A model generated the notes under the pieces. That model saw nothing but the letters and a program-made list of their open reading frames with translations. It did no database searches and was not told the DNA's origin. This document shows positions 1-19,258 of a stretch of 64,000 nt of DNA, piece by piece. Origin of the DNA: Dehalococcoides mccartyi (GTDB taxonomy: Bacteria > Chloroflexota > Dehalococcoidia > GIF9 > DYGU01). Position numbers and translations under genes: made by a program. How positions within the stretch are numbered: the stretch's first letter is position 1; every line of letters begins with the position of its first letter. The stretch is taken from the NCBI GenBank assembly GCA_020724525.1, contig DYGU01000002.1, positions 29,388 to 93,387 of the forward strand, given 5' to 3'.

Positions 1-196
1 CGCAGTCGTCAACCCTAACATAAGCGGCGGTGTTAATTACCATATTCGGCCTGTATTTGTTAAAGACACCTTTAACTGAGTTAATGTTGCCAATTTCAAT
101 ATTGGCATGAGTGAGAGGGATAACCTGAGTATCTTGAAAAGCTCGGCAAAGGTCGCTTCCCAGTTGACCGTTGGCACCGATTATCATTACTTTCAT
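1..196 (-). CDS. rfbD: dTDP-4-dehydrorhamnose reductase, N-terminal part (gene continues beyond window start)
   Basis: Manual minus-strand translation from ATG 196..194 gives MKVMIIGANGQLGSDL...PNMVINTAAYVRVDDC, an RmlD-like Rossmann N-terminus. There is an ATGA overlap with the rfbB stop. It is absent from the ORF track because no stop lies in the window. Confidence 0.6.
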   Translation of the reverse strand, partial: MKVMIIGANGQLGSDLCRAFQDTQVIPLTHANIEIGNINSVKGVFNKYRPNMVINTAAYVRVDDC

Positions 197-1200
197 GTTT
201 GGGAATACATTCTGTGATAGTATTTAATATATTCGCCACTCTTGATTTTACGCCACCAAGACTCGTTTTCCAAATACCACTGAATGGTCCTCCTTAGACC
301 TTCTTCAAAGGATGTAGTAAGCTTCCAATGTAGCTGCTGCCTTATTTTAGTAGTATCTAAAGCATAACGGCGGTCGTGCCCGGGGCGGTCGGAAACAAAG
401 GTAATGAGGGAACGAGGCTTACCCATTATATTAAGGATGTATTTCACAAGCTCCAGGTTGGTAGTATTATTGTTGCCACCAATGTTATATATCTCGCCTG
501 GCTTGCCTTGCTGAATAATTAAGTCCAGAGCCTGACAATGGTCTGCTACATAAATCCAGTCACGCACATTTAGCCCGTTCCCATATATGGGAATTGACTT
601 GTCCTCCAGGGCGTTGGTAATAACTAAGGGAATGAGCTTCTCAGGAAACTGGAAAGGGCCGTAATTATTAGAGCAACGGGTGATAATTACTGGTAAACCA
701 TAAGTGCGATAATAAGCCCGGCATAAACAGTCGGCCGCGGCCTTACTAGCTGCATAGGGACTGTTAGGTAAAAGAGGCGACTCCTCAGTAAATTTGCCTT
801 CGGTTCCCAGTGAGCCGTAGACTTCGTCAGTTGATATGTGAAGAAATAGCTTTACTCCGTGTTGCCTGGCTCCTTCAAGAAGCACCTGGGTTCCTTGAAC
901 ATTGGTCTTAATAAAAGGTGAGGAATCAATAATGCTCCGGTCCACATGTGATTCGGCAGCGAAGTTTACTATCACATCAAAACCTTGCTTGAGGACTTTA
1001 TCGACAACTTTTCTATTAGCAATATCGCCTTTAACAAAAAGGTACCGAGGGCAACTATCAACATCTCTTAAACTGTCTAAGTTTCCGGCGTAAGTGAGCT
1101 TGTCCAGATTGGTGATTTCCCAATCAGGATGCCTGCTCAACACATAGCGAATAAAATTACTCCCAATGAACCCAGCTCCACCAGTTACCAGAACTTTCAT
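193..1200 (-). CDS. rfbB: dTDP-glucose 4,6-dehydratase
   Basis: 335 aa. Motifs TGGAGFIGSNF (Rossmann) and YAASKAAAD (YxxxK), with typical RmlB length. Confidence 0.93.
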   Translation of the reverse strand: MKVLVTGGAGFIGSNFIRYVLSRHPDWEITNLDKLTYAGNLDSLRDVDSCPRYLFVKGDIANRKVVDKVLKQGFDVIVNFAAESHVDRSIIDSSPFIKTNVQGTQVLLEGARQHGVKLFLHISTDEVYGSLGTEGKFTEESPLLPNSPYAASKAAADCLCRAYYRTYGLPVIITRCSNNYGPFQFPEKLIPLVITNALEDKSIPIYGNGLNVRDWIYVADHCQALDLIIQQGKPGEIYNIGGNNNTTNLELVKYILNIMGKPRSLITFVSDRPGHDRRYALDTTKIRQQLHWKLTTSFEEGLRRTIQWYLENESWWRKIKSGEYIKYYHRMYSQT

Positions 1201-1209
1201 TGTTATCTG

Positions 1210-2280
1210 CTACGGCAGTTCGATTTTAGCATCATTACTGACAAAAAGTCTGACTGCCTTAAAATCTTGTTCTTGTTTGACTACCCTGGTATCCCTGCCA
1301 ACAATACTATCAGCCAGGCGCTCAATGTTAAAAATATAACAATTCTCCAGGAACACCGAATGCTCTATCGCCGAATTCTCGATCATACTGCCAGCACCTA
1401 TACTCGTAAAAGGTCCGACAAAAGACTTCTTAATCTGGCATTTTTCAGCAATAGACGCTGGACCCCGGATAAGGCTCTGTTCCACCTTGGCTCCCTGTCT
1501 GATTTCCACCCTGCCGACTACCTGGCTTTGGGAGTCAACCTCCCCCTGGATGTCTCGTTTTAAGTATTCATCGAGTACTACCCGATTTGCCTCAAGGAGG
1601 TCATCCTTTTTCCCGGTATCAAGCCACCAGCCAGTAAGGATATAACTTCTAACGTTTTTCCCCATGTCTAAGAGTTTTTGAATGGCGTCAGTGATCTCGA
1701 GTTCTCCTCGACGGGAAGGTTTTATCTGGGTAATGGCATGGTGAACTTCTGAAGTAAAAAGATAAGCTCCCACCAAAGCTAAATTGCTTTTGGGCTCCTC
1801 AGGCTTCTCGACTAACCGAATCACTTTACCAGAAGGATCAACCTCAGCAACACCAAAGAGGCGAGGGTCAGGGACTTCTTTGAGCAAAATAAGGGCTTCG
1901 GGGTGATACCTATTAAATTCCTCAACAAAAGGCTTAACGCCACCCTGAATGAGATTATCGCCTAGGAACATAAGAAATGGAGAACCGCCAAGAAAATCTT
2001 GAGCTATTTTCACCGCATGAGCCAGCCCAAGGGGCTCGGGCTGTAAGATATAGGTGATTCGGACACCGCATCTTGAGCCATTTTCTACAGCCTCTTTTAT
2101 AAAGGGATTGGTTTCTGGAGAAACGATAATGCCAATAACTTTAATGCCTGCCTCTTTAATCTGTTCAAGAACATAAAACAAGATAGGCTTATTGGCAACA
2201 GGCAAAAGCTGCTTGGGCATGGTGGTGGTGAGAGGCTTAAGCCTTGTTCCTTTGCCGCCAGCTAATACTAAAGCCTTCAT
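1210..2280 (-). CDS. rfbA: glucose-1-phosphate thymidylyltransferase, long form with C-terminal left-handed beta-helix domain
   Basis: 356 aa. N-terminus is [18 protein letters not shown] (GGxGTRL). The hexapeptide-like C-terminal extension is typical of the long RmlA form. Confidence 0.85.
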
Positions 2281-4321
2281 CTTTCTTATAATTATATCTC
2301 AAATTGAGAATAGACGAGAGAGCATAAAGGGTAACGGCACTGTGAGCCCCGAGCCAGGCATAGCCAATGCCGGTTATTCCTGTGGTTGGCATTAGAAAAT
2401 AACTCGTGGCAAGGATAGTTATGACTATGAAGCCCCAGACTGTTATTAGCTCCCGGAGCCTTCCAGTTACCCTGAGGACAGTAGAATAAATTAAATTAAC
2501 TCCTAAAGGTAAAGCGGAGAGCGTTAGTAGCTGGAGTAGTTTTAAGGCGTGTATAGAGTAGCTTTCGCCAAAGACGAGAAGGAGCCATTTCCCAAAGAGA
2601 AGGAAGGCAGCAATACTAGGAACTAACAATAATGAGGTAAACTTAAGAGACCGGACAATATTTTCTGTCAGCTTCTCCTGGGAATAAGAGCCCTCGGCAA
2701 AAAGGGATGAGGAGACAGCCCCGGGTATAAAAAAGAGCAGGCTGGCTATCATCAAGGAAATGTAGAAGTAAGCATTAGCTTCAGCACCAAGAACGTTCAC
2801 CACCAAGAGAGGCAAGAACCAAGAAAAGGCACTAAAAACAAGCGAAACCAGATAATTACCTCCGGAATATTTCCAGGTGTCTCGAACTAAGGGAATACTT
2901 AAGGCAGGCACTGGTCTATAGCCAGCTTGCACCCGGGGCAGAAAAAGAAAAACAACAAGGGCCAAGGTAACTGCTATAGCTATGGTCAGGGCGCCGATAA
3001 TGCCGAAACTGTAGAAAAAGAAAGATAAGAGGATAACCAAAGGAATCTTGAGGAGCGCGTGAATGTTATTCTGAAGAAAGGTGAATTTGGCACGGCGATG
3101 AGCGATGAAAACACAGCCAGCCAAGCTGGAAATTGTCCATAGTACCACAAGAAGGACAAAGATTAAGGAAAGAGCTAGGTTCTCCTTAAGATAGTTGAGG
3201 GCTGGTGACCACAGGCTAATTCCAGCAAGAAAGATAGTGGCGGAAAGAAAGCCGACAAGACCGCCAATAGTGAAGGTAGTATTGCTTAATTGATGAGGTT
3301 TTTCAGACTGGGGGAGAAACCGGATAAGGGAGGAGTCAAAACCCAAGGAGCTCAACATAATCAGAACCATGGCTGCAGAGATAACGGCTGAGGCGAAACC
3401 AACGTCAGCCGTACTGTAAAGACGGGCAACCACTACCCAGAAAACGAAGTTGAGAAAAGCCATAGCAATCGTGTTTGCCATCAGATACAAAGCATTTGTG
3501 TAGAGGGGAGGTGCCAGAATTTGCTTCAGCCATTCTACTGGCGTCAGCCGAAGCTTGATGACATCCCAGGCAACGCCGAGTCCGTGAACCACGGGATTAC
3601 TGCTGGAAGCATGAGAGTGGTAAACGCAGGAAATGGGTATTTCGGTGATAGGAAAGCCTTTGTTTCTGGCCTGGATTAGGACCTGGACGCTGAAGCCAAA
3701 GCCGTCCTCAGTCAGGTTAAGGGCTTCAAGCAACTTCCGGCTATGGGCACGAAAGCAGCTCTGGGCATCGGAGACTTTTGCTTTTGAGCCAAAATTGTAA
3801 AGAAAAGTGATGACATCAATGCCAAATTTGCGGTAGCGAGGAATCGTTTTAGAGAGATTGCTTCGGCTCTGCCTCGCAATGACAGGGGGTGGGCGCCTCG
3901 CAATGACGTTGTAGGGGGGGGGATTGCTTCGGGGCTTTGCCCCTTGCAATGACAAAGAGAGGAGGAAGCGGGAGCCGATGACCAGGTCAGACTGCCGGTT
4001 AGCAACCGGGGCGATAACCCGGGGGATTTCGTCAGGGTTGTGTTGACCATCACCGTCTAAAGTAACGACAATGTCGGCACCATTCTTCAAAGCGGCTTCA
4101 AAGCCAGTTTTGGTGGCAGCACCAGCGCCTCTTCTGGAGCTGTGCCTGATAACATTAGCTCCAGCGGCGGAGGCGGCGTCACCGGTGCTGTCATTAGAGC
4201 CATCATCAATGACGATGACCTGGTCAACATATTTCCGGGCTTGGGAGACTATTTCGCCAATAAAAGGCTGCTCGTTGTAAGCCGGGATGACAGCAATAAC
4301 TTTAGGATGCTTCTCAGTCAT
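2237..4321 (-). CDS. fusion protein: N-terminal family-2 glycosyltransferase (DPM1-like) plus C-terminal multi-TM polysaccharide flippase-like (Wzx/MOP-like) domain
   Basis: 694 aa. The N-terminus ([26 protein letters not shown]) is a GT2 DxD-type fold. The C-terminal ~430 aa are strongly hydrophobic with many predicted TM segments. The 3' end overlaps rfbA by 44 nt. Confidence 0.8.
3855..3953. repeat. cluster of gattgcttcgg...cgcaatgac repeat units lying in-frame inside the GT2 domain, including a G9/C9 homopolymer (3914-3922)
   Basis: The units gagattgcttcggctctgcctcgcaatgac, ggcgcctcgcaatgac and ggattgcttcggggctttgccccttgcaatgac encode [37 protein letters not shown]. The same motif family recurs at 8130-8264. 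Confidence 0.85.
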
Positions 4322-4866
4322 TATTCAAAGACTTCTGAGAGATTCACAGACAACTTAGGGAAGGTGAGTGAAACCAGGGTCTGAGTGTAAATGCCGAGCG
4401 TTTCAAAGCCTTTTTGCCCGAGCCGGGTTACTTCAATGGCTCGTTTCTCCGGGTCAACCAGCCAGTATTCCTTAACCCCGTGGCGAGCATAAAGAGTGCG
4501 TTTGTAGGTCCGGTCTCTCTCCGCAGTTGCTGGAGAAAGGATTTCTATAATTAAGTCAGGCGCCCCTTGAACGTTTTCCTTGGAGATGATTTGGGAACGT
4601 TCCTTTGAGACAAAGAAGATGTCTGGCTGAACTACATCCTCGTCGGAGAGAACCACATCCAGAGGGGCATGATAGATAAATCCCGGGTCATGCCTGGACA
4701 AAAAATCTCCCAAAATACGTTCTAAATTCCACGAAATTCTCTGGTGATAAGTAGTCGGTGATGGAACCATAATAAGCTCTCCTCCCAAAAGTTCATAACG
4801 CTTGGTCTCAGATTCGGGCAAGTTTCTATAATCCTTGTAAGTGAATTTAATTTTAGCTTTCGGCAC
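4321..4866 (-). CDS. Uma2 (DUF820) family restriction-endonuclease-like protein
   Basis: 181 aa. Motifs YELLGGELIMVPSPTTYHQ and PDLIIEILSPATAERDRTYKRTLYARHGVKEYWLVDP (PD-(D/E)xK-like). GTG start. Its stop overlaps the GT start as TAATG. Confidence 0.85.
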   Translation of the reverse strand: MPKAKIKFTYKDYRNLPESETKRYELLGGELIMVPSPTTYHQRISWNLERILGDFLSRHDPGFIYHAPLDVVLSDEDVVQPDIFFVSKERSQIISKENVQGAPDLIIEILSPATAERDRTYKRTLYARHGVKEYWLVDPEKRAIEVTRLGQKGFETLGIYTQTLVSLTFPKLSVNLSEVFE

Positions 4867-4974
4867 GTTCTACCTGACCTTTTTAGTGACTATCCACAAT
4901 TATAATATATTCCGCACGATTGAGCCTTGCTTTGACATAACACAAAAAGAATTTGACGAATCCTCAATTCATCA

Positions 4975-5301
4975 CTAAAGTTCCCTTGCTGTAGCTAAAA
5001 CTTCCTTGAGGAAAATCCTTTCCTTCATCTCTTCAAATTCTGGTTCAGTATAAACCAGTGGCTCTACTGGTAGGGAAGTCAAATCAAAAATCTTCTTTAT
5101 GCGCTGTGGCATCTTGCCATCAAATTCACCTACTATGATAAGGTCTATATCACTACCCTCATTGAAATTGCCCTTAGCGAAGGAGCCATAAAGATAAACC
5201 TTCTTCACTTTATGCTTGCTCTTAAGAAGATTAGCTAATTCCCTGAGCTGCTCATAAATCTTTTCACTGTCTTCAACATTAACTCGGCATAACTTATACA
5301 C
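4975..5301 (-). CDS. minimal nucleotidyltransferase (MNT), antitoxin-type partner of HEPN
   Basis: 108 aa with the motif LYGSFAKGNFNEGSDIDL (GSx10-ish DxD). It overlaps the upstream HEPN gene. Confidence 0.85.
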   Translation of the reverse strand: MYKLCRVNVEDSEKIYEQLRELANLLKSKHKVKKVYLYGSFAKGNFNEGSDIDLIIVGEFDGKMPQRIKKIFDLTSLPVEPLVYTEPEFEEMKERIFLKEVLATAREL

Positions 5302-5636
5302 TGTTCAGCATCCTCCGGTGAATAATATTCAGCTGGAATTTCGTTACCTACTAAACCATCAGGATATCTCGTAGGAATGTAATAGGTATCCAGAACCTTC
5401 CCCTGGCCAACCAAATTGCTGAAATCCTTCTCATATTTTGAGCAATCTAAAACTAAGTCTCTTATAGAGTGAGTCAATATAGCTCGCAAGCCTTTAGAAT
5501 AAAGGAAGGCTTTTAAAGCCTTCTCAGCAGCTTGCTGCGACTGAAAACAGGCCCATTCGTAATGCTTAGCCGTAAGACTGTCTCGGGCACTCTCTAAGTC
5601 TTTTTCGGCTTGTCTTAGCCACCTTTTCTCTTCCAT
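5235..5636 (-). CDS. HEPN domain protein (toxin-type partner of MNT)
   Basis: 133 aa. Pattern QQAAEKALKAFL...THSIRDL...YIPTRYPD is typical of HEPN proteins paired with MNT. Confidence 0.8.
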   Translation of the reverse strand: MEEKRWLRQAEKDLESARDSLTAKHYEWACFQSQQAAEKALKAFLYSKGLRAILTHSIRDLVLDCSKYEKDFSNLVGQGKVLDTYYIPTRYPDGLVGNEIPAEYYSPEDAEQCISYAELMLKTVKRFMSSSGN

Positions 5637-5663
5637 AGGTTACTATAGTAGCCTAATCATTGC

Positions 5664-5951
5664 TTACTTGACAGTGAGGAAGTTCTTGATGCGAAGCTTT
5701 ACTACTGTGAAGGCAACACCAGGCGGCTTCAAAGCTAGTCCTGGTGGCAGCACCAGCGCTTCTTCTGTGTTGTGCCTTATAACATTAGCTCCGGCGGCTG
5801 AGGCGGCGTCACCGGTGCTGTCATTAGAGCCATCGTCAATGATGATGACCTGGTCAACATATTTCCGGGCTTGGGTAACTATATCACCAACGAAGGACTG
5901 CTCGTTGTAAGCCGGGATGACAGTGATAACTTCAGGGTGGTTCAGCATCAT
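5664..5951 (-). pseudogene. truncated, frameshifted copy of the N-terminus of the GT2-flippase gene
   Basis: Nucleotide homology to 4071-4321 runs from the start codon to about 5722. There is a 1-nt deletion relative to the full copy near 5765-5775. Protein identity is lost after NVIRH. Confidence 0.8.
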
Positions 5952-6124
5952 TACTGTTTCCTACTTTTCTCTCCTTTATTCGAGCTTCTATAGGCACAAG
6001 AGCCGAAAAGGATAATCTTCTGCCGATCTACTGCTTTGACAATGCGGGAAACAACTTCCTGAACTATGCCTTATCTACACTCTCTAAACTTCTACCATTC
6101 ACCTCTTTGCTTCCTTCTTGTCCC

Positions 6125-6517
6125 TTATAACATAAAGGGCAAGCCTTTAATTAACTTTTCTGTCGTTGGATCTACCCGATAGCCCATTTGCTCCAGGGCG
6201 ACAATCCCTATAAGCGGTGTAGTTTTAGAAGGTCTAATAATAGTAAGGCATCCGGCAATCCTTTCTTCGATTTCCACTATAGCGAATGTCAAGCCAAGTT
6301 TTCTTACCCCTTCCATGGTTTCGCCATCAATTTCCCCGAGCGAGGATAAGCCTAAAGTGTTGATTAATTCCTGCGGCAAAGCCGGAAAGGTGGAACCGGT
6401 GTCAACCAGAGCTCCTACCTCTACCCTTTTTACTTCTTCGAATTTTCGTTTACCCTCCCGGTATTCAATATATTCTATTGGGTTATAGAAACTGGCTTTA
6501 GTGTGAATATGACCCAT
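6125..6517 (-). CDS. single-domain retropepsin-like (clan AA) aspartic protease
   Basis: 130 aa. Has an ALVDTGSTF active-site-like motif and a C-terminal PLIGIVALEQMGYRVDP. This resembles the archaeal/bacterial DTGF-type small protease family. Confidence 0.7.
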   Translation of the reverse strand: MGHIHTKASFYNPIEYIEYREGKRKFEEVKRVEVGALVDTGSTFPALPQELINTLGLSSLGEIDGETMEGVRKLGLTFAIVEIEERIAGCLTIIRPSKTTPLIGIVALEQMGYRVDPTTEKLIKGLPFML

Positions 6518-6529
6518 TTTTGCCTCACT

Positions 6530-6889
6530 TTATACCATGAGCAACTCTACCGGCTTTAATTTCTTTGTTATCGGGTCTAATTGATAACCCAGGGATTCTA
6601 AGGCGGTGATTCCAAGGATGGGAATATCTTCCCTTTCGCCGAATATTACAGGGACGCCGGCACGAGCCTGCTCGTATTCAATTACGGCAACACCTATATC
6701 TCTGTCTACAACAGCTCCTCCAAAAGCTCTTAGTTTCCTTTGGCTAAACGGCTCAAGCCTGAGCTCCTTAAGTAGGGAACGGGGGACAGTGGTAAAAAGG
6801 GCGCCGCTATCTACCAAAAGCTCGATTTCCTCTGCCTTTGTTAAATTGGCGGGACTATAAATTTTCACTTTAACGTTTGTAAACCCCAT
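6530..6889 (-). CDS. single-domain retropepsin-like (clan AA) aspartic protease, divergent paralogue
   Basis: 119 aa. Has an LLVDSGALF motif and a C-terminal PILGITALESLGYQLDP. It lies 12 bp upstream of the second protease gene. Confidence 0.7.
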   Translation of the reverse strand: MGFTNVKVKIYSPANLTKAEEIELLVDSGALFTTVPRSLLKELRLEPFSQRKLRAFGGAVVDRDIGVAVIEYEQARAGVPVIFGEREDIPILGITALESLGYQLDPITKKLKPVELLMV

Positions 6890-7434
6890 TAAAAGACCTC
6901 GGAAAGGTTGAGGGACAATCCCGGGAGTATTGGTGAGGTCAGGGTCTTGTTATAGACGCCTACTTGCTGGAAACCTTCCTCAGTCAATATCATTACTTCT
7001 ATGGTTCGCTTGTCAGGGTCGACGAGCCAGTATTCTTTGACGCCATTTCGGGCATAAAGGGTGCGCTTATAGGTTCGGTCTCTTTCGGCTGTTGCCGGGG
7101 ACAGGATTTCTATAATTAAGTCCGGGGCTCCTTGAATGTTCTCCTCAGTGATGATTTGTGAATGCTCTTTTAAGATAAAGATGATATCAGGCTGGGCTAC
7201 GTCCTGCTCAGAAAAGACAACGTCCAAAGGGGCATTATAAATAAAACCTAAATCGTGCTTTCGGACAAGATCCCATAAAATATGCTCCAGATTTCTCGAA
7301 ATTCTCTGATGATACGTAGTTGGTGACGGAACCATAATAAGTTCTCCTTCCAGAAGCTCGTAGCGCTTGGTCTCAGACTCAGGCAGGTTTTTGTAGTCCT
7401 GATAAGTAAATTTGATTTTAGATTTCGGCATCAC
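6889..7434 (-). CDS. Uma2 (DUF820) family restriction-endonuclease-like protein, paralogue of 4321..4866
   Basis: Roughly 70 percent identical by eye to the other copy. The likely start is ATG 7431. Its stop overlaps the protease start as TAATG. Confidence 0.85.
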   Translation of the reverse strand: MMPKSKIKFTYQDYKNLPESETKRYELLEGELIMVPSPTTYHQRISRNLEHILWDLVRKHDLGFIYNAPLDVVFSEQDVAQPDIIFILKEHSQIITEENIQGAPDLIIEILSPATAERDRTYKRTLYARNGVKEYWLVDPDKRTIEVMILTEEGFQQVGVYNKTLTSPILPGLSLNLSEVF

Positions 7435-7510
7435 ACTGTTCCTTCCTTACCTTATTTTGTAAATTTCCTTTAGTTCCAGTTGAGGATTATAATGGAGACC
7501 TTAGGGTGAT

Positions 7511-7987
7511 TCACAATTCCTTCACCCTACTGGCAAGCTTTTTAACATCCTCTGCTGCTTCCTTCACAGATTCGGGTGGAAGCCAGGCTTCGTAGAAATT
7601 CTGATGAAGTGTAATCGCAGACCTCCATAATCTATTTAGCTCTGGGTCGCCTGTTTCCTCACGCAACTTGAATGCATATTTATGTAACTCGCCATGACTT
7701 CTTAGCTCTTCACCACGCTTAGCCGCTACAGATTTAACAATCTGTGATGCTGCCCCCCAGAATTTCTCTGAGGCTTGGATATAGTCCTTTTTTGATAATA
7801 GCTCGTCCCCCTCGCGGAGATACTTCTCACTAAGCTTAAGATATGCCTCTGCCTTAACTTCTGGATCATCGCTAACCTGAAAAATAATAGCCTTTAGTAT
7901 GATCTCTTCTAAAGGTAAGTCTTCTGATTTCGCTTTCTGCTGAAGTTTTTCAAGCAACATCTCAGGTATTTCAAGGGTTATGTTCAT
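7511..7987 (-). CDS. PaREP1-like protein (archaeal-type helical family) with short N-terminal extension
   Basis: 158 aa. The pattern AEAYLKLSEKYLREGDELL..KDYIQASEKFWGAASQIVK...LHQNFYEAWL matches my recollection of the PaREP1 family signature. Confidence 0.55.
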   Translation of the reverse strand: MNITLEIPEMLLEKLQQKAKSEDLPLEEIILKAIIFQVSDDPEVKAEAYLKLSEKYLREGDELLSKKDYIQASEKFWGAASQIVKSVAAKRGEELRSHGELHKYAFKLREETGDPELNRLWRSAITLHQNFYEAWLPPESVKEAAEDVKKLASRVKEL

Positions 7988-8129
7988 ATTTCCATCCTTT
8001 TCAGTCTATTCAAGCTTAACCAACCCTTTTTATCGCTTCTTCAGGAGAGATCCTGTTGGACAAGCTTTTGAGGCGTTCTCTTCAAATACACAACACTATT
8101 ATACCTTATACCGTCAAGCCTATTTTAAT

Positions 8130-8264
8130 GAGATTGATTGCTAACCCCATTCTGTCATTGCAAGGGGCGTTAGCCCCGAAGCCTTGTCCTGAGTGAAACG
8201 AGGGAACTCCATAAGATTGCCACGCCTGCGGCTCGCAATGACGGGGAGAAATTGCTAATCACTC
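8130..8264. repeat. intergenic composite repeat with inverted gtcattgcaagg / ctcgcaatgac modules and MITE-like ends
   Basis: The left end is gagattgattgctaacc. The reverse complement of the right end is gagtgattagcaattt. The internal modules are the same motif family as 3855-3953. No clean target-site duplication was seen. Confidence 0.6.
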
Positions 8265-8276
8265 TTTTTTCCTCAG

Positions 8277-10634
8277 TCATTTAATATATTCAAAGATTTT
8301 TACTCTGGGGGCGATTATGCCCGGTCCTATCAGGGTCAGGGTTGGGGACTCATAAAGGAACTTGTAGCGCTGGAGCCCTTCCAGAGGCACCGGGGTCCTC
8401 CCGGGACTGGTGCCAACTATACGGTAGTTTTTGGCAGCTTGTTTGCCAATAAAAGCTTCGGCTTCTGGGTAAGTGGCGAAGGTCCGGGAGCTGGTGATTT
8501 CCTTATAAGGTCTTCCCCTTTTGTCTTTCATTTCCGCGTAAGAAATAACTGTTATTGAAGTCGGGGTCGAGGCTTCGCCGTTGAAATTGTATAGCTGGCT
8601 TGCCAGAGACTTGTAGTAATCAGGAAAATAGAGCCTCGTTGGGGTAAGGGTGCTATCTGGTTTTCTGGTGTAGTAAACATCCATAAACTGGGATAATTCC
8701 TTGCCACTCAAGGCAGCCAGAGACGGGAATTTGGCGGTTACAGTATGGTCAACTATTACATATTTTGCCCCGGATCCGTCCATTATTTTATTGGCTGAGG
8801 CTTCGTCCTGGGCAGTGAAGAAAGCGGAAGGAATACCACCCGGACCCATACCGCCAGGGTCGGCCACCGGCAGGCGGTGAGCGATCCGGACGATGAAATA
8901 ACCATACCCCCAGAGAGACATTACGCTATAAGCGGAAGGGGGGTAACTATATTGCTGCCCCTTTGGCGGAGGTTCGTATAGCTGATAATAGAAATCAGGG
9001 TCTGGAAATGGCTCTGGTGTGTTGTTTTTGAGCCAGATAAGAGAACGATATAAGTCTTCACAAATTGTGGCTCCTCCCTCCGCCCAGCCGGCTTTCACCT
9101 GCTTTGGGCCTGCCATCAGGTTAGGGAAAAATACCAGGAAAAAGACAATAATTAGGGCTAAAGCCTGGTTTATGATAAATGTCGGTCGGCTCTTCTTTGG
9201 CTTAACCTTACCCTTTTTCTTTAATGTTTGTGGCACCTTAGGTTCCAGAGCGGGCTCTTTAAAGCCAGCGAATTTTAGGATTTTCCAGGCAAAGTAACCG
9301 GTGAGCAAAGCTACAATGATGGCTAAATAATAGCTCCAACGAAGCATGCCTAAACCTAATGCCACGATGATTAAGCTCCAGGTAAGGAGCAGCATTTTGG
9401 TTGCCTCCCCCCGTTTGCCAGCTTCATAAATGAGCAAGCCGAGGGAAACGAAGGTGATGAAAAAGCCAGTAGTGAAATTAGCCCAGGCCAAGTTCAAAGA
9501 AAAATAGCCACCCGTGAAGAGCAGAGGTATGGTCTCACTAACCCCCGGAGCCATCGCAAAAGTAAGTAGGCTGAGGTAACCCAGAATTGTTCTTAACAGG
9601 TGGGGGTTGATGATATAAAAGAGGATTATACCGGATAGTCCGAGTCCAGCAACTATTAGGGGATAAAAGGCAGGCTTTATACCCTTATCAGCCATCAGCC
9701 GGGAGATAAGGCACAGGGCTATGGGGATGGTCAGGGCAATTAGCAGTGACACCTGGTAGAGAGGCTGTGTTCGGACTTGAGGATAAAAGCCAAAAACGAG
9801 TCCTGAGGCGATGACAAAGGTTAAGCCGCCAATAATGCCCAGATAGTCCGTTGGCGTTCGCCGCAGGTGGTCTATAATGGGCTGGACTATGAGGAAACAA
9901 AAGATGATGAAGACAAAGAGGAGGGCACCTGCCCAGGAGAGGAGGTAAATCCCAAGGCTGATGCCAGCAAGGAGGGTGCAGGCAAGAGGCTTAGTGACAG
10001 ATTTCCAGTTTTGAGGCAGCAAGTGGCTAAAGGAAAGCTGGTTTCCCCGGGCTTGTTTTATCGCCAGTATCAGAAACATCATGGTCAGAGTGCTGAAAAA
10101 GATTTCAGCCACATGATGGTCAGGCATGCCCAAAAGTGTCCGGCTTAAGAAGGTGCCAGGCAAAACAGAAATGAGAGCCGCGCCTAAGAGACCAGCCCAG
10201 TGGTTAAACACTACTTTGCCGATAAAATATACCGGGACAACCGTTAGCGCCCCTAAAATGGCTGGTAAATAAGCACCTACCAAATCTATAATCTTTTCAC
10301 TGGGTGTGCCTAAACCGATAGCCCAGGCAATTGAAGCAAGTAGCCAGAGCCACCCGGAATGCGCAGCAGTGCCACCGCCATAAGGGTAACCAAAATAAGG
10401 GTCAAAGGAAATACGGTGGGGGAAATTGTGGACCAAATTATCTACCTGTCGCATATACCACCAGGGGTCGGTGTCTCTAAATCTAACCCAGTCACCGGCA
10501 AAGACTAAGTCATAAGGTAGATAAACTCGTATAAATAGGGAAATACCGAAAATAATAGATAGTGTTATTGCGATGGTAAAGGCTGGTGACAGCCGGGCTG
10601 GCTCAGCTTTGTAGCCTTTGGTTTTCCTGGTCAT
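8277..10634 (-). CDS. STT3/AglB-family oligosaccharyltransferase-like membrane protein
   Basis: 785 aa. The multi-TM N-terminal half contains RFRDTDPWWYMRQVDNL (first acidic loop), MPDHHVAE (DxH) and GVSETIPL (SVSE/TIxE-like). The soluble C-terminal domain has LWGYGY in place of WWDYG. Confidence 0.7.
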   Translation of the reverse strand: MTRKTKGYKAEPARLSPAFTIAITLSIIFGISLFIRVYLPYDLVFAGDWVRFRDTDPWWYMRQVDNLVHNFPHRISFDPYFGYPYGGGTAAHSGWLWLLASIAWAIGLGTPSEKIIDLVGAYLPAILGALTVVPVYFIGKVVFNHWAGLLGAALISVLPGTFLSRTLLGMPDHHVAEIFFSTLTMMFLILAIKQARGNQLSFSHLLPQNWKSVTKPLACTLLAGISLGIYLLSWAGALLFVFIIFCFLIVQPIIDHLRRTPTDYLGIIGGLTFVIASGLVFGFYPQVRTQPLYQVSLLIALTIPIALCLISRLMADKGIKPAFYPLIVAGLGLSGIILFYIINPHLLRTILGYLSLLTFAMAPGVSETIPLLFTGGYFSLNLAWANFTTGFFITFVSLGLLIYEAGKRGEATKMLLLTWSLIIVALGLGMLRWSYYLAIIVALLTGYFAWKILKFAGFKEPALEPKVPQTLKKKGKVKPKKSRPTFIINQALALIIVFFLVFFPNLMAGPKQVKAGWAEGGATICEDLYRSLIWLKNNTPEPFPDPDFYYQLYEPPPKGQQYSYPPSAYSVMSLWGYGYFIVRIAHRLPVADPGGMGPGGIPSAFFTAQDEASANKIMDGSGAKYVIVDHTVTAKFPSLAALSGKELSQFMDVYYTRKPDSTLTPTRLYFPDYYKSLASQLYNFNGEASTPTSITVISYAEMKDKRGRPYKEITSSRTFATYPEAEAFIGKQAAKNYRIVGTSPGRTPVPLEGLQRYKFLYESPTLTLIGPGIIAPRVKIFEYIK

Positions 10635-10743
10635 ATTGTCAAATAGCCTAATAGCATTGGTTTAGATTATAAGTTAAAATAAGCCAAAGTAAAAGGGGAC
10701 AAGAGAAGACAAAAAACCAGGCATTTAGAAAACTGGTGGAAGG

Positions 10744-11208
10744 ATGTTCATGATTGAGAAGATTGTTTTAATGTTGCTGGTAACCTGGTCTCCGGTGAGT
10801 GAATTAAGAGGGGGTATTCCTGTTGGGTTGGCTTTAGGGCTTGAGCCTGTGCTGACGCTAATTGTAGCTGTGGTAGCTAATTCCGTCTTATTTTTTCCGG
10901 TTTTCGGGGTGCTGGAGCTGTTTTATAAACGATTCCTTTGCCGATTGAAGATTTTCAATTTTTATCTGGAAAAGGTGAGGCAAAGGGGGAAGCCGTGGGT
11001 GGACAAATATGGTTTCTTTGGCTTGACTTTATTTGTCGCCGTGCCTTTACCTGTGACTGGTGTCTATACAGGTGCGACCTTAAGCTGGTTATTGGGTATG
11101 GACTGGAAGCGCGCTTCTCTTGCCATCGGACTCGGAGCCCTTTCAGCCGGGATTGTGGTGCTTTTAGCTTCATTAGGTATAATAACCGTAATAAAGAACT
11201 GGATTTAA
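10744..11208 (+). CDS. small membrane protein, putative small multidrug-export-like family
   Basis: 154 aa with 4 predicted TM segments. The N-terminal ELRGGIPVG motif resembles the COG2426-type family. Confidence 0.55.
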   Translation: MFMIEKIVLMLLVTWSPVSELRGGIPVGLALGLEPVLTLIVAVVANSVLFFPVFGVLELFYKRFLCRLKIFNFYLEKVRQRGKPWVDKYGFFGLTLFVAVPLPVTGVYTGATLSWLLGMDWKRASLAIGLGALSAGIVVLLASLGIITVIKNWI

Positions 11209-11214
11209 ATAACA

Positions 11215-12453
11215 GTGTATGATGCCATTATAGTTGGTGCCGGACCTGTCGGTAGTTATATTGCTTTTAGTTTAGCCAGAGCGGGCTATAAAGTTGCTGT
11301 CTTTGAGGCAAAAGAGACTGTCGGCAGCAAAGTATGCTGCACTGGTATTATCAGCCAGGAATGCTATGCCTGGTTCTGCCCCGAGGATGCTCCAATATTG
11401 AGAAAAGTTAGCTCTGCTAAGTTTTTTGGTCCTCCGGGGCGGTCTTTGACACTGGAAAAAGATACTATCCAGGCTTATATAATTGATCGGGCGACTATTG
11501 ATAAGACTTTAGCCAGGAAGGCTCAAGAAGCAGGAGTTGATTACTTCCTTCAAAGCAAGGTTATGAGTGTCAAACCTGAGAAGGAGTGTTGTCGGGTCGA
11601 AGCAAACTGTCCGAGGCAAAGCCAGGAGTTTCAGGCTAAGGCAGTAGTGGTTGCCTGTGGTTTCGGCTCAATTCTTCCAGAAAGGTTAGGCATGGGCAAA
11701 ATCAATGAATTTATTTCTGGTGCCCAGACTGAAGTAAATACCGAAAGCAGGGAAGTCGAAGTCTACTTTGACCAAGAACTGGCCCCAGGGGGCTTTGCTT
11801 GGATGGTCCCAACGTCTAGTGGGAAAGGCTTAGTCGGTCTTATGTCCAGACATAATGCTCATTCCTTCTTAAAGAGTCTATTATCCAGGCTCATAGCTGA
11901 AGGCAAAATAAGCTCTAAGGAGTTTGAAATAAAACAAAAGGCAATACCATTAAGGACTCTCCCCCGGACTTATAGAGACAGGGTGCTAGTGGTGGGAGAA
12001 GCTGCTGGGCAAGTGAAGCCGACTACCGGTGGTGGTATATATTTTGGCTTACTTTGTGCTGAATTGGCTGTTAACACTTTACATGAGGCATTTTTAATTG
12101 GTGACCTGTCCTCAAGGCAACTTTGCCATTACCAGAGGAAATGGCAGGCAAAAATAGGCTTTGATCTGTGCATAGGTTACCGGGCTCGGGTGATATATGA
12201 TACGATTAGTAATACCCAAATTGAACGCGTCTTCGATATAGCCAGGTCAGACAAAATTTATGAACAATTGCTTAATGGTGAGGATTTTTCTTTCGACTTT
12301 CATGGTAAACTCCTTTCCCGGGTATTGAGACAGCCAAAATTGCTGATGAATTTGGTTACTCCGAAGTCGTTACTCTCGCTATCAGGTATTTCGAGTTTAC
12401 GGCAGGGAGTATCAGGCGAAGCCCCGGAGGCAGATATTGTCTATGATAAATAG
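11215..12453 (+). CDS. geranylgeranyl reductase family FAD-dependent oxidoreductase
   Basis: 412 aa. Has the IIVGAGPVGS dinucleotide fold and VVGEAAGQVKPTTGGGIY, typical of the GGR family. GTG start. Confidence 0.8.
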   Translation: MYDAIIVGAGPVGSYIAFSLARAGYKVAVFEAKETVGSKVCCTGIISQECYAWFCPEDAPILRKVSSAKFFGPPGRSLTLEKDTIQAYIIDRATIDKTLARKAQEAGVDYFLQSKVMSVKPEKECCRVEANCPRQSQEFQAKAVVVACGFGSILPERLGMGKINEFISGAQTEVNTESREVEVYFDQELAPGGFAWMVPTSSGKGLVGLMSRHNAHSFLKSLLSRLIAEGKISSKEFEIKQKAIPLRTLPRTYRDRVLVVGEAAGQVKPTTGGGIYFGLLCAELAVNTLHEAFLIGDLSSRQLCHYQRKWQAKIGFDLCIGYRARVIYDTISNTQIERVFDIARSDKIYEQLLNGEDFSFDFHGKLLSRVLRQPKLLMNLVTPKSLLSLSGISSLRQGVSGEAPEADIVYDK

Positions 12454-13135
12454 TTTCCCGAGACATGTCAGTATTATTATGGATGGTAATGGGCGGTGGG
12501 CAAAGCAGCATGGCTTACCTCGTTTGGGGGGACACCGGGCTGGGGTTGAGAATATTCGCCGGGTTGCTGAGGTCTTTGCTGAATATAAATTAAAATACCT
12601 TACTTTGTTTGCCTTTTCTACTGAAAACTGGGGGCGACCGCAAAGGGAAGTAAAAGGGCTGCTACAAATTTTAGAAGAAAGGATTGACCAGGAAGTTGAG
12701 TTTCTCCATGATAAGAATATCCGGGTTTGCCACCTGGGACGACTTGACCGATTATCCAGAAAACTCCAGCAGAAGATAAGAGGAGCCATTGAACTTACCA
12801 CGAACAATAGCCGGATGACACTTAGTATCGCCTTCGATTATGGGGGTAGAGGTGAGATTTTAGATGCAGTTCGTCGTCTTCTTACTGACAAAGTTTCCCC
12901 GGGAGACATAGATGAGACTTTATTTAAGGAGTATCTTTATTTACCGGGGATTCCTGACCCTGACTTAATCATTCGCACTGGTGGTGAGATACGCCTGAGC
13001 AATTTTCTTTTATGGCAAGCTGCCTATAGCGAACTCTACTTTACTGAGGTGCTGTGGCCCGATTTTGGCAGGACAGAAATTGAGAAAGCCGTGGCTGCTT
13101 ACAGCCAGCGGCAAAGACGCTTTGGTGAGATATAA
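12437..13135 (+). CDS. uppS: undecaprenyl/isoprenyl diphosphate synthase (cis-prenyltransferase)
   Basis: 232 aa. Motifs HVSIIMDGNGRWAK and RTGGEIRLSNFLLWQAAYSE. Overlaps the upstream reductase by 17 nt. Confidence 0.92.
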   Translation: MSMINSFPRHVSIIMDGNGRWAKQHGLPRLGGHRAGVENIRRVAEVFAEYKLKYLTLFAFSTENWGRPQREVKGLLQILEERIDQEVEFLHDKNIRVCHLGRLDRLSRKLQQKIRGAIELTTNNSRMTLSIAFDYGGRGEILDAVRRLLTDKVSPGDIDETLFKEYLYLPGIPDPDLIIRTGGEIRLSNFLLWQAAYSELYFTEVLWPDFGRTEIEKAVAAYSQRQRRFGEI

Positions 13136-13159
13136 ACAGAAACTGTCGGCAACAAAACT

Positions 13160-14406
13160 ATGCACATAGTCATTATTGGTAATGGGATTGCTGGCAATAC
13201 GGCAGCTCTGACTATCAAAAGAGGCAACCCAGAAGTTAGTCTTACTTTAATCTCGGAAGAAAATTGCCCTTTGTATTCACCATGTGTCTTACCTCATTAC
13301 CTCGCCGGTGCCATAGATAGAAATCGAGTCTTCCTCGAGGGTATAGAAAGTTACTCTGGGGAAGGGATTAGAATCATCCTTGGGGAGAAAGCCGAAAATA
13401 TTGATGTCAGGAATAAAGAAGTATCTTTGCTCAGCCAGGTCATTCCTTATGATAAGCTGGTAATAGCCACTGGTAGCAAAGTGATAATCCCACCTATTGA
13501 TGGTTTAAATAAGGAGGGTATCTTTACACTCAAATCTCTGGGTGATGCTGATAGGCTCTGCCACTGGTCGGGGAAAGAAGCTGTAGTTATTGGTTCTGGC
13601 TTTATTGGTATTGAAGTAGCGGTAGCTTTAAAAAAAGAGGTTATCAGGTTCATATAATAGAATTACTTGACTGGATATTACCTCGCGCCTTCGATGAAAG
13701 TCCGGCATCCTTATTAGCCGAAATTCTTCAGGAAAATGGCATTGAGGTATCAGTCAAGGAAGGGGTTAACCGTATTACTGGTAATACCCGGGTTACCACT
13801 GTGGTCACCGACAAACGCGAGATAAAATGTGATACAGTAATTCTGGCTACGAGAACGAAGCCCGAGGTGGAATTAGCCCGGAAAGCTGGGCTTAAGATTG
13901 GCAGGCTTGGTGGTATTGAAGTAGATAAGGGAATGTTAAGTAGTGTTAGCGATGTCTACGCCTATGGCGATTGTGTTGAGACGGAAGATTTGGTCAGTGG
14001 GGAAAAGGCTTTAAATTTGCTTTGGCGTAATGCCAAACAACAGGCTGAAGCTGCTGCTAATAATTGTTTAGGTGGTCACCAGAAATATCCTGGCTCCATA
14101 AATGTTACCGGGGTAGATATTTTTGATGTCCAGGGCGTTTCCATTGGCATTACCGCAAGTAGTATTGCTCAGGAGGCTAATAAGCTGGAGATAATCGAGA
14201 AAAGTCGAGGGTTGGATTACCTGCGCTTGATAATCTATGACCAGGTTCTTGTTGGTGTCCAGGCAATAAACAAAATTAAAGAATTGGGTTCCCTGCTTAG
14301 TGTCATATTACGTAAGGAAGGTTTAAAGTTGCCTGAAAAGGGAAGTAGTATCTTCCCCTACCTTTTGCAGCGGCACCGGCTAAGCCAGTACTTGAGTAGA
14401 ACTTGA
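13160..14406 (+). pseudogene. pyridine nucleotide-disulfide oxidoreductase (NADH oxidase/CoA-disulfide reductase-like) split by a -1 frameshift in an A7 run
   Basis: ORF 13160..13657 (IVIIGNGIAGNTAA, VVIGSGFIGIEVA) continues in another frame as RGYQVHIIELLDWILPRAFD...DVYAYGDCV. The shift is at the A7 run 13630-13636. Confidence 0.8.
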
Positions 14407-14462
14407 AGGTGGTAAAGCATGGAAGTTAAAGTCATAGACTAGTTGGTCATGTTCTTGAATCT

Positions 14463-14810
14463 ATGCCCAGTGATTGTGGTCGACCTATCTACCTTGACCG
14501 CATTGCTTGCGATTTCCCCAATCTCAAGATTATCGGCTCTCATACCGGCTATCCGTGGGTAGAAGAGCTGATTTTGGTTTGTTATAAGTGGGACAATGTC
14601 TGGTTTGGATGTGATGCCTGGGCACCCAAATTGTGGTCACAGTCGATAATCCAGTATATCAACTGCCGTTTAGGGGCAGAGCGGTGTATTTGGGGCACCA
14701 ATGGGCTACCGTGGAAAGAAATGCTGGACCAGGTTAATACTTTGGGACTGAAGGAAAAGAATAAGAGAAAGCTTCTCCGGGATAACGCCATTGAGTTGTT
14801 CAAGCTTTAG
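14463..14810 (+). pseudogene. C-terminal remnant of an amidohydrolase-2-like gene
   Basis: Only 115 aa (GSHTGYPWVEE...) remain, corresponding to the C-terminal part of a metal-dependent hydrolase. The N-terminal two thirds are missing. Confidence 0.5.
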
Positions 14811-14930: not shown

Positions 14931-15461
14931 ATGGACTGGGCTACAATTTTAAGAAATTTCCTTTGCCAAAAGAAAGCTTCCATTTTAGAGAGGTGGTTCA
15001 ATCTCATAATGGAGAGTTATCCTGGCGACAGTTTATTTTTAAAGCAGGAGAAGGATAGGTTTGCTAATCCGGTCGGATATACGATTTCCCAGGAAATAGA
15101 GACTTTGTATGAAGGACTCCTTCAGGGGGTGGCTTCTGACAAACTTATCACCTCGCTCGACAATATTATTAGAATCAGAGCAGTCCAGGATTTTTCCCCG
15201 TCACAGGCTGTTTCCTTTGTCTTCCGTTTAAAGCAAGCGATAAGAGATGAGTTGGACAAGGAAATTCATGAAGGTCAGATTTCTAAGGAATTGTTGAAAT
15301 TTGAGTCTAAAATAGATGAACTGGCTCTTCTTGCCTTTGATATATATATGAAGTGTCGGGAGAATATCTACGAAATCAGGGTAAATAAGTTGAAAGCCGA
15401 AGTGGTGGGAGCGTTAAAACTGTCTGGGAAAAAATCTAATGCCTACCAGGTGAAAAAGTAG
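14931..15461 (+). CDS. hypothetical protein, possibly RsbRD-N-terminal-like domain protein
   Basis: 176 aa helical protein. The pattern ILERWF...FANPVG...IRIRAVQDFSPSQAV recalls the RsbRD_N family, but this is from memory only. Confidence 0.6.
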   Translation: MDWATILRNFLCQKKASILERWFNLIMESYPGDSLFLKQEKDRFANPVGYTISQEIETLYEGLLQGVASDKLITSLDNIIRIRAVQDFSPSQAVSFVFRLKQAIRDELDKEIHEGQISKELLKFESKIDELALLAFDIYMKCRENIYEIRVNKLKAEVVGALKLSGKKSNAYQVKK

Positions 15462-15471
15462 AGGCAATAAA

Positions 15472-16467: not shown

Positions 16468-16468
16468 A

Positions 16469-18091: not shown

Positions 18092-18464
18092 TGCCGATAA
18101 GATCATCACAGGGCTAATTATCTTCCTTTGCCTGATAACTTTCCCTATTTATTATAATATAGCTACTGGGAAAGCCGCCTACAGACCTGAACCAAAAATC
18201 GTTACCGAAGAAAAACAGTGTGTGGAGTCGAAAGGATACATGAGAGCTAAACACATGGACTTATTGGAGGAATGGAGAGAATCGGTTGTCCGAGAGGGGA
18301 AGAGAGTTTATGTAGCCAGCGATGGTAAACAATACACTATGAGTCTTGTGGACACATGCATGAGATGTCATTGGAACAAGGCTGAGTTTTGCGACTTATG
18401 CCATAACTATGTGGGCATAAGACTTAACTGCTGGAGCTGCCATACCCTACCTAAGAGAGACTAA
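18084..18464 (+). CDS. dsrJ: DsrJ-like triheme cytochrome c with N-terminal membrane anchor
   Basis: 126 aa. One N-terminal TM segment and three CxxCH sites (CMRCH, CDLCH, CWSCH). Confidence 0.75.
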   Translation: MYDADKIITGLIIFLCLITFPIYYNIATGKAAYRPEPKIVTEEKQCVESKGYMRAKHMDLLEEWRESVVREGKRVYVASDGKQYTMSLVDTCMRCHWNKAEFCDLCHNYVGIRLNCWSCHTLPKRD

Positions 18465-18465
18465 T

Positions 18466-19248: not shown

Positions 19249-19258
19249 GGTTGTCAAT

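Follow-up and report, generated by a model that had tools for sequence, protein, structure and literature searches.

A predicted AglB-type oligosaccharyltransferase with a degenerate acceptor pocket, and a reductase–UppS gene pair, in a Dehalococcoidia genome

Does a bacterial chromosome that carries the genes of archaeal N-glycosylation also encode a working pathway? The question is raised by a stretch of 64,000 nucleotides assigned to Dehalococcoides mccartyi (assembly GCA_020724525.1, contig DYGU01000002.1, positions 29,388 to 93,387; hereafter, the window). Its first 13,135 positions contain a gene for an oligosaccharyltransferase related to archaeal AglB, a homologue of geranylgeranyl reductases (GGR) whose gene overlaps the cis-prenyltransferase gene uppS, a family 2 glycosyltransferase (GT2) domain fused to a flippase, and dTDP-sugar genes. 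A previous reading, made from the sequence only, proposed that this organism synthesizes a dolichol-like carrier and performs AglB-type protein N-glycosylation with a rhamnose-containing glycan. All the genes that it named are present, as judged by open reading frames and family matches. The interpretation that we favor, and to which we give an even chance, is that the region is the core of a euryarchaeal-type polyprenyl-phosphate surface glycosylation system in an uncultured, wall-less member of the Dehalococcoidia, and that its AglB is active with relaxed or altered acceptor recognition.

The aglB gene (8277..10634, minus strand) encodes a glycosyltransferase of family GT66 with 785 amino acids. 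The protein scores 105 bits with the STT3 family (PF02516) and 66 bits with AglB_core (PF22627), while its score with PMT_2 (22 bits) is under the cut-off. A score of 542.5 bits (cut-off, 450) was obtained with TIGR04154, whose name is ‘oligosaccharyl transferase, archaeosortase A system-associated’. The archaeosortase/PGF-CTERM setting suggested by that name was sought through the exosortase/archaeosortase family PF09721, which has no match in the host genome, a draft of 1.34 Mb in 25 contigs that is 98% complete and in which all the genome-wide profile searches described below were made. No score was obtained with AglB_L1, a unit that archaeal members of the family typically have. The motifs DTDPWWYMR, MPDHH and GVSE are found at residues 54–62, 170–174 and 364–367, respectively.

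The closest solved relative by sequence is AglB-L of Archaeoglobus fulgidus (AfAglB-L), aligned over residues 27–647 with an E value of 1e-64. A single-sequence AlphaFold model was unusable (predicted local distance difference test, pLDDT, 42), and an alignment-based AlphaFold2 model was used instead (pLDDT, 92.9; predicted template modeling score, 0.93). When this model was compared with the PDB using Foldseek, the top matches were four AfAglB entries, the best of them being 7e9s (E value, 1.5e-35; template modeling score, TM, 0.73). Eukaryotic STT3 and bacterial PglB (E value about 1e-13; TM, 0.52) came next, followed by DPY19, PMT and ArnT. Altogether, family scores and predicted fold indicate that the gene encodes a genuine AglB-type oligosaccharyltransferase and not a PMT/ArnT enzyme. 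No better match to the GT39/GT83 families was seen, and the identification made in the sequence-only reading stands.

The metal-binding and catalytic acidic residues of GT66 enzymes are present: the Asp of the first DXD motif, the second DXD motif in the form D-H-H, and the Glu of the TIXE motif. D56 aligns with D47, the first DXD Asp of AfAglB. Likewise, D172, H174 and E367 align with AfAglB residues D161, H163 and E360 (numbered as in PMC8342417). D56 and D172 do not vary in a set of 107 diverse homologues from bacteria and archaea, in which H174 and E367 are conserved to at least 90%. Arg432, the lipid-phosphate residue, and Lys635 are also kept. The latter lies in a segment (D629...K635-F-P-S-L) that aligns with the variant DK motif E/D<>KxxxM/I/P, with Leu instead of Met, Ile or Pro as the last residue of the signature. 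This variant, accompanied by an inserted loop, is the type found in Archaeoglobi, Halobacteria and Methanomicrobia (PMC3703281).

The second component of the putative system is a gene pair on the plus strand, made of the GGR-family flavoprotein reductase gene (11215..12453) and uppS (12437..13135). UppS is readily recognized (TIGR00055, 275 bits against a cut-off of 109.55; PF01255, 277 bits). The reductase exceeds the cut-off of the general family TIGR02032 (210 versus 158.8 bits), and its best PDB match is the Thermoplasma GGR 3OZ2. The alignment to 3OZ2 keeps the catalytic Cys (GSKVCC), FAWMVP and GEAAGQVKPTTGGGI (the GEAAG..P.TGGGI motif). Scores with characterized subfamilies are far lower than the corresponding cut-offs: 45 versus 700 bits for MenJ, 114 versus 343 for ChlP/BchP, and 126 versus 580 for the archaeal DGGGPL reductase. 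By these scores, the protein belongs to none of the characterized GGR subfamilies. A second GGR-like gene, on contig 4, is next to a gene for a BcrAD-type activase, with nothing visible that ties it to the glycosylation system.

The overlap of the two genes amounts to the 17 nt previously reported if uppS starts at the TTG at 12437, but to 11 nt if it starts at the ATG at 12443, which is preceded at 13 nt by a GGAG sequence and was chosen by an independent gene call. The linkage itself is conserved: GGR adjoins uppS in 30 of the 37 genomes of the order that have GGR. Two families show the order GGR–uppS with 4-nt overlaps, and in a third family the order is uppS–GGR, after a GlmU-like gene. 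The proposed conservation of a larger unit, with the oligosaccharyltransferase next to the pair, does not hold, since aglB adjoins GGR–uppS in only 2 of 33 AglB-bearing genomes (the host, G000, and G013). As a separate observation, some GGR orthologues in complete genomes of 1.4–1.5 Mb have an in-frame stop (G093, G167).

A clue to the nature of the carrier came from the distribution of sugar-1-phosphate transferases. The class was sampled evenly with 251 genomes. The GGR orthologue occurs in 79 of them and PF00953, the family of MraY and WecA, in 107 (including the unpublished genome G271, whose omission leaves the result unchanged); the two are never present together, and 65 genomes have neither. 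As the genomes are related, this exclusivity may reflect few evolutionary events. PF00953 was not found in any of the 41 genomes of the order. In the host genome, no match was found to PF00953, to PF02397 (PglC), to the penicillin-binding protein transpeptidase domain (PF00905) or to FtsW/RodA (PF01098). Therefore, the host is predicted to belong to a wall-less lineage in which peptidoglycan genes are not detected and the usual sugar-1-phosphate transferases cannot charge a lipid carrier. The mutual exclusion of GGR and MraY/WecA, together with the lack of a detectable initiating enzyme for polyprenyl-diphosphate-linked sugars in the genome, fits a monophosphate carrier of euryarchaeal style.

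Would such a carrier be a dolichol? Archaeal GGR saturates the omega and internal isoprene units of dolichyl phosphate (Dol-P) and is not known to act on the alpha unit, whose saturation defines dolichol (PMC5088576, PMC10821996). Moreover, a Haloferax GGR mutant is still alpha-saturated (PMC10821996), and therefore a GGR gene beside uppS does not predict true dolichol, contrary to what had been proposed. By analogy with the archaeal enzymes, what remains of the term ‘dolichol-like’ is a carrier that is probably saturated in part. The closest model would be the donor of A. fulgidus, a C55/C60 monophosphate with three to five saturated units; euryarchaeal AglB enzymes use monophosphate dolichol carriers saturated to this extent (PMC8342417).

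The distribution of GGR is also the main argument for a different explanation, namely that the GGR–uppS pair does not serve a glycan carrier: its products might be saturated long-chain polyprenols or other isoprenoids that stabilize a wall-less membrane, or the substrate of the reductase might be a quinone or a different prenyl lipid, and its location beside uppS a mere coincidence. The GGR orthologue is indeed far commoner than AglB (79 versus 36 of the 251 genomes) and is found where MraY/WecA is lacking rather than where AglB is present. In addition, GGR enzymes are promiscuous, and free polyprenols have been proposed to stabilize the membranes of methanogens (PMC10821996). This explanation, however, does not sit well with the tight, conserved overlap with uppS, the sugar-nucleotide (GlmU-like) gene that joins the pair in one family, the adjacency to aglB in two genomes, or the low scores with MenJ and ChlP. 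The orthologue is also enriched in AglB-positive genomes (26/36, compared with 53/215 in genomes that lack AglB), with the caveat that the genomes are not independent. On balance, we consider a role outside glycan transfer unlikely. The 53 AglB-less genomes do indicate, however, that the carrier is not for AglB alone.

A small membrane protein of family PF06695 (Sm_multidrug_ex; 103 bits) is encoded by the first gene of the GGR–uppS operon (10744..11208, plus strand). The gene is single-copy in the genome. It lies beside GGR or uppS in six genomes, the host and five relatives, and 4–7 kb from an AglJ-like GT2 gene in three others. This recurrent company makes it a candidate that may act in carrier metabolism.

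In the euryarchaeal monophosphate-carrier pathway, the carrier is charged by a GT2 enzyme of the Dpm1/AglJ type. A 694-amino acid protein (2237..4321, minus strand) consists of a GT2 domain (PF00535, residues 11–134) resembling Dpm1, AglJ and PpgS and a Wzx/AglR-like flippase domain (Polysacc_synt, PF01943, residues 275–536). The best NCBIfam matches of the GT2 domain are PpgS (124 bits), AglJ (93 bits; cut-off, 325) and Dol-P-hexose transferase, all under their equivalog cut-offs. A GT2 of the Dpm1/AglJ type was thus found in a genome with no match to PF00953 or PF02397, the combination expected of a monophosphate-carrier pathway. The fusion, listed as part of the toolkit in the sequence-only reading, is real but was found only in this genome; in relatives the two genes are separate, with GT2 usually 8–30 kb from aglB. 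The flippase gene directly follows aglB in four relatives and lies at most 1.2 kb from it in a fifth. This conserved pairing offers independent evidence, at the level of gene order, for a predicted role of the AglB family of this order in glycan transfer.

Genes for the sugar moiety stand alongside. All on the minus strand, the window includes rmlA in its long form, for glucose-1-phosphate thymidylyltransferase (1210..2280; TIGR01208, 468 bits against a cut-off of 320), rmlB, for dTDP-glucose 4,6-dehydratase (193..1200; TIGR01181, 499 bits against 365), and the 5’ end of rmlD (2..196), an open reading frame that runs off the window edge. Hence, rmlA and rmlB are complete, but rmlD is represented in the window by its first 65 codons alone; its continuation (L038:13715-14386) matches RmlD_sub_bind with 234 bits over profile positions 70–284. 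The sugar cluster extends about 10 kb upstream of the window, with the rest of rmlD, rmlC, methyltransferases, UDP-glucose dehydrogenase, epimerases, and glycosyltransferases of families GT1, GT2 and GT4. An Rml cluster alongside aglB agrees with the rhamnose-containing glycan previously proposed.

A tentative pathway can be drawn from these genes. UppS would make polyprenyl diphosphate, and the coupled reductase would saturate one or more isoprene units, either omega or internal by analogy with Haloferax. The Dpm1/AglJ-like GT2 domain would then place the first sugar on the monophosphate carrier, and the fused Wzx/AglR-like domain would flip the charged carrier. The Rml enzymes, UDP-glucose dehydrogenase (Ugd), the GT1, GT2 and GT4 glycosyltransferases and the methyltransferases would assemble a glycan containing rhamnose and uronic acid, and AglB would pass it to a surface acceptor. 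Other consumers of a lipid-linked glycan were sought in the genome: aglB is the sole match of the PMT_2/STT3 type of GT-C enzymes, and neither a PMT/ArnT-like enzyme nor an O-antigen ligase (Wzy_C, PF04932; WaaL and PglL types) was found.

Several observations weigh against our interpretation, beginning with the acceptor pocket of AglB. At residues 574–578 (nt 8901–8915), LWGYG replaces the WWDYG motif; the flanking residues are identical to those of AfAglB and relatives, so that the alignment is unambiguous. Among the 120 closest homologues drawn from a search of 5.8 billion proteins, the Asp of WWD is found in 119 and is missing in this protein alone, and the first Trp, also lost here, is found in 115. 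The TIXE Thr, present in 111 of the 120, is Gly in this protein (GVSE), which keeps the Glu. The literature assigns the Ser/Thr pocket to WWDYG plus the DK or MI motif, and TIXE has been found to be essential in alanine scanning of AfAglB (PMC8342417, PMC3703281); because of these published roles, loss of AglB activity is a real possibility. Beyond the pocket, an insertion of 3.7 kb and a duplication disrupt the locus, which is closely followed by pseudogene fragments. BacA and PAP2 phosphatase, candidates for the step that yields the monophosphate carrier, were not found in the draft genome. Lastly, GGR orthologues abound in AglB-less genomes, and the acceptor protein, the glycan and the carrier lipid are all predictions.

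Sequencing or assembly error was considered as the origin of LWGYG and was ruled out. The codons involved (CTC and GGG) are each several base changes away from the canonical residue, and the sequence is identical across several studies: the exact protein is encoded on contigs of a Joint Genome Institute (JGI) sample and of an independent Sequence Read Archive (SRA) run, and aglB is likewise unchanged on contigs from three more DNA runs, which belong to two other studies. More broadly, the 4.9-kb stretch from aglB to uppS is essentially unchanged in subsurface and rock metagenomes from five studies (2014–2024), and a single contig in one of those runs has few-base differences inside the GGR gene.

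The nearest relative of the host AglB, with 54% identity, is degenerate at the same sites, where it has PRDVG and MVGE. Both frames are full length, and both proteins keep the metal-binding and catalytic residues, Arg432 and Lys635. Outside the pocket they have 10 identical derived residues in common, but the pocket residues themselves are not the same. It seems that constraint on the pocket was lost in an ancestor of both and that the site has been drifting since. A further point against our interpretation is that the pocket residues of the two proteins diverge in a way that suggests relaxed constraint and not selection for a new specificity. Damaged motifs occur in further Chloroflexota-type AglB proteins, all metagenomic: besides PRDVG in the nearest relative (P0002), WRDYG is found in P0033 and RRDAG in P0118, which departs from the family consensus at 45 columns, more than the host enzyme. 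Comparison of these sequences suggests that pocket loss may have happened several times.

The two Trp residues and the Asp of WWD are each at least 90% conserved across the 107 diverse homologues. Of 255 alignment columns with at least 90% conservation, the host protein is off consensus at 40, compared with a median of 7. It matches the consensus at the other 215 columns despite just 49% overall identity, and all 12 columns that are invariant in the 107 homologues are kept, which points to continued constraint. What state of the enzyme do these figures describe? One answer, which we regard as possible although rather unlikely, is that AglB is dead or dying in this organism, which would have given up AglB-dependent glycosylation and would use the glycan cluster and the carrier for glycolipids or polysaccharide through an unrecognized route. 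The two most conserved acceptor-binding motifs are gone, departures from conserved columns are numerous, the nearest relative has the same motif damaged in a different way, mobile cargo separates aglB from its former flippase partner, with a GT2 fragment and pseudogene pieces nearby, and the lack of an AglB match in 8 of 40 relatives indicates that loss does occur in the order. Such a relic, however, would hardly be expected to maintain a stop-free frame of 785 codons at 46–51% divergence from relatives, to keep every catalytic and lipid-phosphate residue and every invariant column, and to yield a high-confidence fold. Moreover, no alternative consumer of lipid-linked glycan was detected in the genome (neither Wzy_C nor another GT-C enzyme), and an RNA-library contig covers part of aglB, which is weak evidence.

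At the other extreme, AglB might still modify Asn in N-X-S/T sequons of S-layer or other surface proteins, with the DK Lys and backbone contacts offsetting the missing Trp and Asp. Every other defining feature of AglB is present, and relatives with canonical motifs presumably function in this way. It can be argued, too, that the contacts between TIXE and the sequon are main-chain hydrogen bonds (PMC8342417) and that the WWDYG region is structurally plastic (PMC3703281). The near-universal conservation of the WWD residues in homologues is difficult to reconcile with this proposal, and drift at the pocket in both the host protein and its nearest relative would not be expected if the pocket were still used. 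We find a normal N-X-S/T enzyme very improbable. Because WWDYG and the TIXE Thr are lost in the only AglB of the genome, canonical N-glycosylation in this organism, as suggested in the sequence-only reading, becomes doubtful. With the pocket lost but with intact catalytic residues in a confidently folding protein of 785 amino acids, we therefore rank an active transferase with a relaxed or changed acceptor as the most likely state, a relic as a possible one, and a normal enzyme as the least likely.

The history of the locus itself was also examined. Between the flippase fusion and aglB, its usual neighbor, lies a toxin-antitoxin and mobile block of 3.7 kb (4321..7987, minus strand), in which Pfam matches identify two Uma2 genes (4321-4866 and 6889-7434), an NTase/HEPN pair (4975-5636) and RHH-PaREP1 (7511-7987). 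The block also contains a GT2 5’ fragment (5664-5951) that matches the beginning of the fusion with 80% identity, and two small retropepsin-like open reading frames (6125-6517 and 6530-6889), all on the same strand. Segmental duplication is evident: 4141-4323 and 5771-5953, at the GT2 5’ end, are 88% identical in nucleotide sequence, 4428-4727 and 6993-7292 are 75% identical, and the two Uma2 proteins are 76% identical. The duplicated unit, made of the GT2 5’ end and Uma2, spans 4092-4866 in one copy and 5723-7434 in the other, with the NTase/HEPN pair and the two retropepsin-like frames between.

PaREP1 is present in six copies in the host genome: 7511-7987 of the window, four sites on contig C17 and one on C12. 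Outside the host, it was found in one of 40 relatives, and Sulfolobus was the only one of 14 control genomes with a match. The copies represent an expansion, specific to this lineage, of a HEPN-like module that is mostly archaeal. The small proteases described previously as DTGF-type have only sub-threshold scores to retropepsin-like families. Together with PaREP1, they are lineage-specific mobile toxin-antitoxin cargo, unrelated to the old acquisition of AglB.

Is AglB itself of archaeal origin? Within the order, AglB is found in 33 of 41 genomes, with 44–50% identity and three copies in some. One family (f2, represented by G003, G010, G012, G018, G024 and G026) has three or more paralogues, two of them in tandem (for instance, G010:C38:15823-20479 and G026:C1:1133957-1138574). 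In the class, AglB is present in 36 of the 251 sampled genomes, 24 of them over the family cut-off, and is concentrated in few families. An exhaustive HMMER search returned 792 clusters at E < 1e-30. In a FastTree phylogeny of 127 representatives, the named tips are Chloroflexota/Dehalococcoidia in several clades and a Phycisphaerales metagenome-assembled genome in another, with a nested archaeal group of Methanosarcinales/Halobacteriota; support for these placements is 0.2–0.4 and the rooting is by midpoint, and on how many transfers occurred, and in which direction, we say no more than the distribution indicates.

The nearest named archaeal relatives are Halobacteriota/Methanosarcinales and, by database labels, AglB-type enzymes also occur in Planctomycetota and Acidobacteriota. 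This kinship, combined with a patchy spread in bacteria, fits archaea-to-bacteria transfer. Lombard (2016) had earlier assigned the few Stt3 homologues known from bacteria at the time to a position within Euryarchaeota (PMC4973528). Transfer of AglB is therefore a plausible proposal, not new in principle, and to judge from its presence in 33 of 41 genomes an old event in this order. The inter-domain transfer suggested in the sequence-only reading is thus supported for AglB but does not extend to PaREP1 and the small proteases, which arrived as a lineage-specific insertion.

A wider scenario would be that wall-less Dehalococcoidia swapped peptidoglycan-centered use of the carrier for a euryarchaeal-style pathway, in which UppS and GGR provide a partly saturated monophosphate carrier and AglB glycosylates a protein coat, and that the AglB enzymes of some lineages, the host among them, dropped the Ser/Thr pocket and now modify Asn irrespective of the N-X-S/T rule, or another acceptor. 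As a whole, this scenario is speculative and probably wrong in part or in full.

Other features of the region are of less consequence. A scan for promoters and terminators across 7400-13300 found sites no more frequently than in shuffled sequence, and TTTACT-16-TATAAT at 10693-10666, upstream of aglB, is a mere consensus match. RNA-library contigs cover just 8684-8898 and 11063-11266; as they could be DNA carry-over, they are not proof of expression or co-transcription. Just past uppS, 13160-14810 is likely pseudogene debris: a Pyr_redox_2 gene is split over two frames (13160-13657 and 13801-14406), the first piece being called alike in an independent assembly, and an Amidohydro_2 fragment (14463-14810) spans profile positions 159–289 only. 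Further on, 14931-20416 encodes an RsbRD_N-domain protein, a NarI-like membrane cytochrome, an Fe-S protein of 540 amino acids, a 4Fe-4S dicluster protein and an NrfD-type membrane subunit; this looks like a membrane redox complex module, unrelated to the glycosylation finding. Markers in the window are bacterial, with EF-Tu behind a tRNA cluster, PolA and a bacterial LeuS.

Altogether, these observations point to a finding that is more interesting for the order than for the single locus: an undescribed, widespread glycosylation system of archaeal type in wall-less Chloroflexota, with a conserved UppS–reductase pair. We found no paper on AglB in Chloroflexota or Dehalococcoidia in the open-access literature, and public annotation pipelines already name these proteins. 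Experimental knowledge of N-glycosylation in bacteria comes almost entirely from PglB of Campylobacter-like and Desulfovibrio-like organisms. If our interpretation is correct, an archaeal form of the pathway would extend into Bacteria and provide a genetic handle on how a coat is built in cells devoid of peptidoglycan. The UppS–GGR pair would be a candidate for the synthesis of saturated polyprenyl phosphate in bacteria and may bear on the incomplete archaeal dolichol pathway. In turn, AglB variants that retain the catalytic center and lack WWDYG would be natural material for the study of sequon specificity, with relevance to glyco-engineering.

Comparison with known systems helps to situate these predictions. 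In the Agl pathway of Haloferax volcanii, AglJ and AglD are Dol-P-sugar synthases, AglR is a flippase candidate, and AglB is the oligosaccharyltransferase. The system predicted here from genes resembles it in having a monophosphate carrier, a charging GT2, a Wzx-like flippase and AglB as the last enzyme. The sugar toolkit is also alike, with uronic acids, methylation and rhamnose, and a GGR-family enzyme would act on the carrier, as HVO_1799 does on Dol-P in Haloferax (PMC10821996, PMC5088576). The differences are that a bacterial-type UppS is here translationally coupled to the reductase, that GT2 and flippase are fused, that the GT2 domain scores 93 bits against an AglJ cut-off of 325, and that the Dehalococcoidia system is known from its genes alone.

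As for the transferase, the single-subunit euryarchaeal AglB-L of A. fulgidus (3WAJ, 3WAK, 5GMY, 7E9S) is the best match in both sequence and fold. The two proteins have in common the first DXD Asp, D-H-H, the TIXE Glu, the lipid-phosphate Arg and the variant DK motif with its inserted loop. The protein described here differs in its bacterial host, in LWGYG, in the change of the TIXE Thr to Gly, in the lack of an AglB_L1 score, and in a genome with no archaeosortase match. PglB of Campylobacter is likewise a bacterial single-subunit oligosaccharyltransferase of the STT3 family that uses a polyprenyl-linked glycan and probably came from Euryarchaeota (PMC4973528). PglB, however, has an MI motif and undecaprenyl-diphosphate donors begun by PglC, while the host AglB has a DK-type Lys and its genome has no PglC or WecA match.

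A last parallel is offered by the archaellum clusters of Chloroflexota, for which a 2025 preprint infers acquisition from archaea (10.1101/2025.02.02.636118). That study does not mention AglB, and the glycans that it reports for the bacterial archaellum are O-linked, not N-linked. The likeness lies in the route and the setting: the inferred recipients (Dehalococcoidia and Anaerolineae) and donor (Methanotecta, within Halobacteriota) agree with those suggested here for AglB, and in both cases archaeal surface machinery is found in bacteria with a monoderm envelope.

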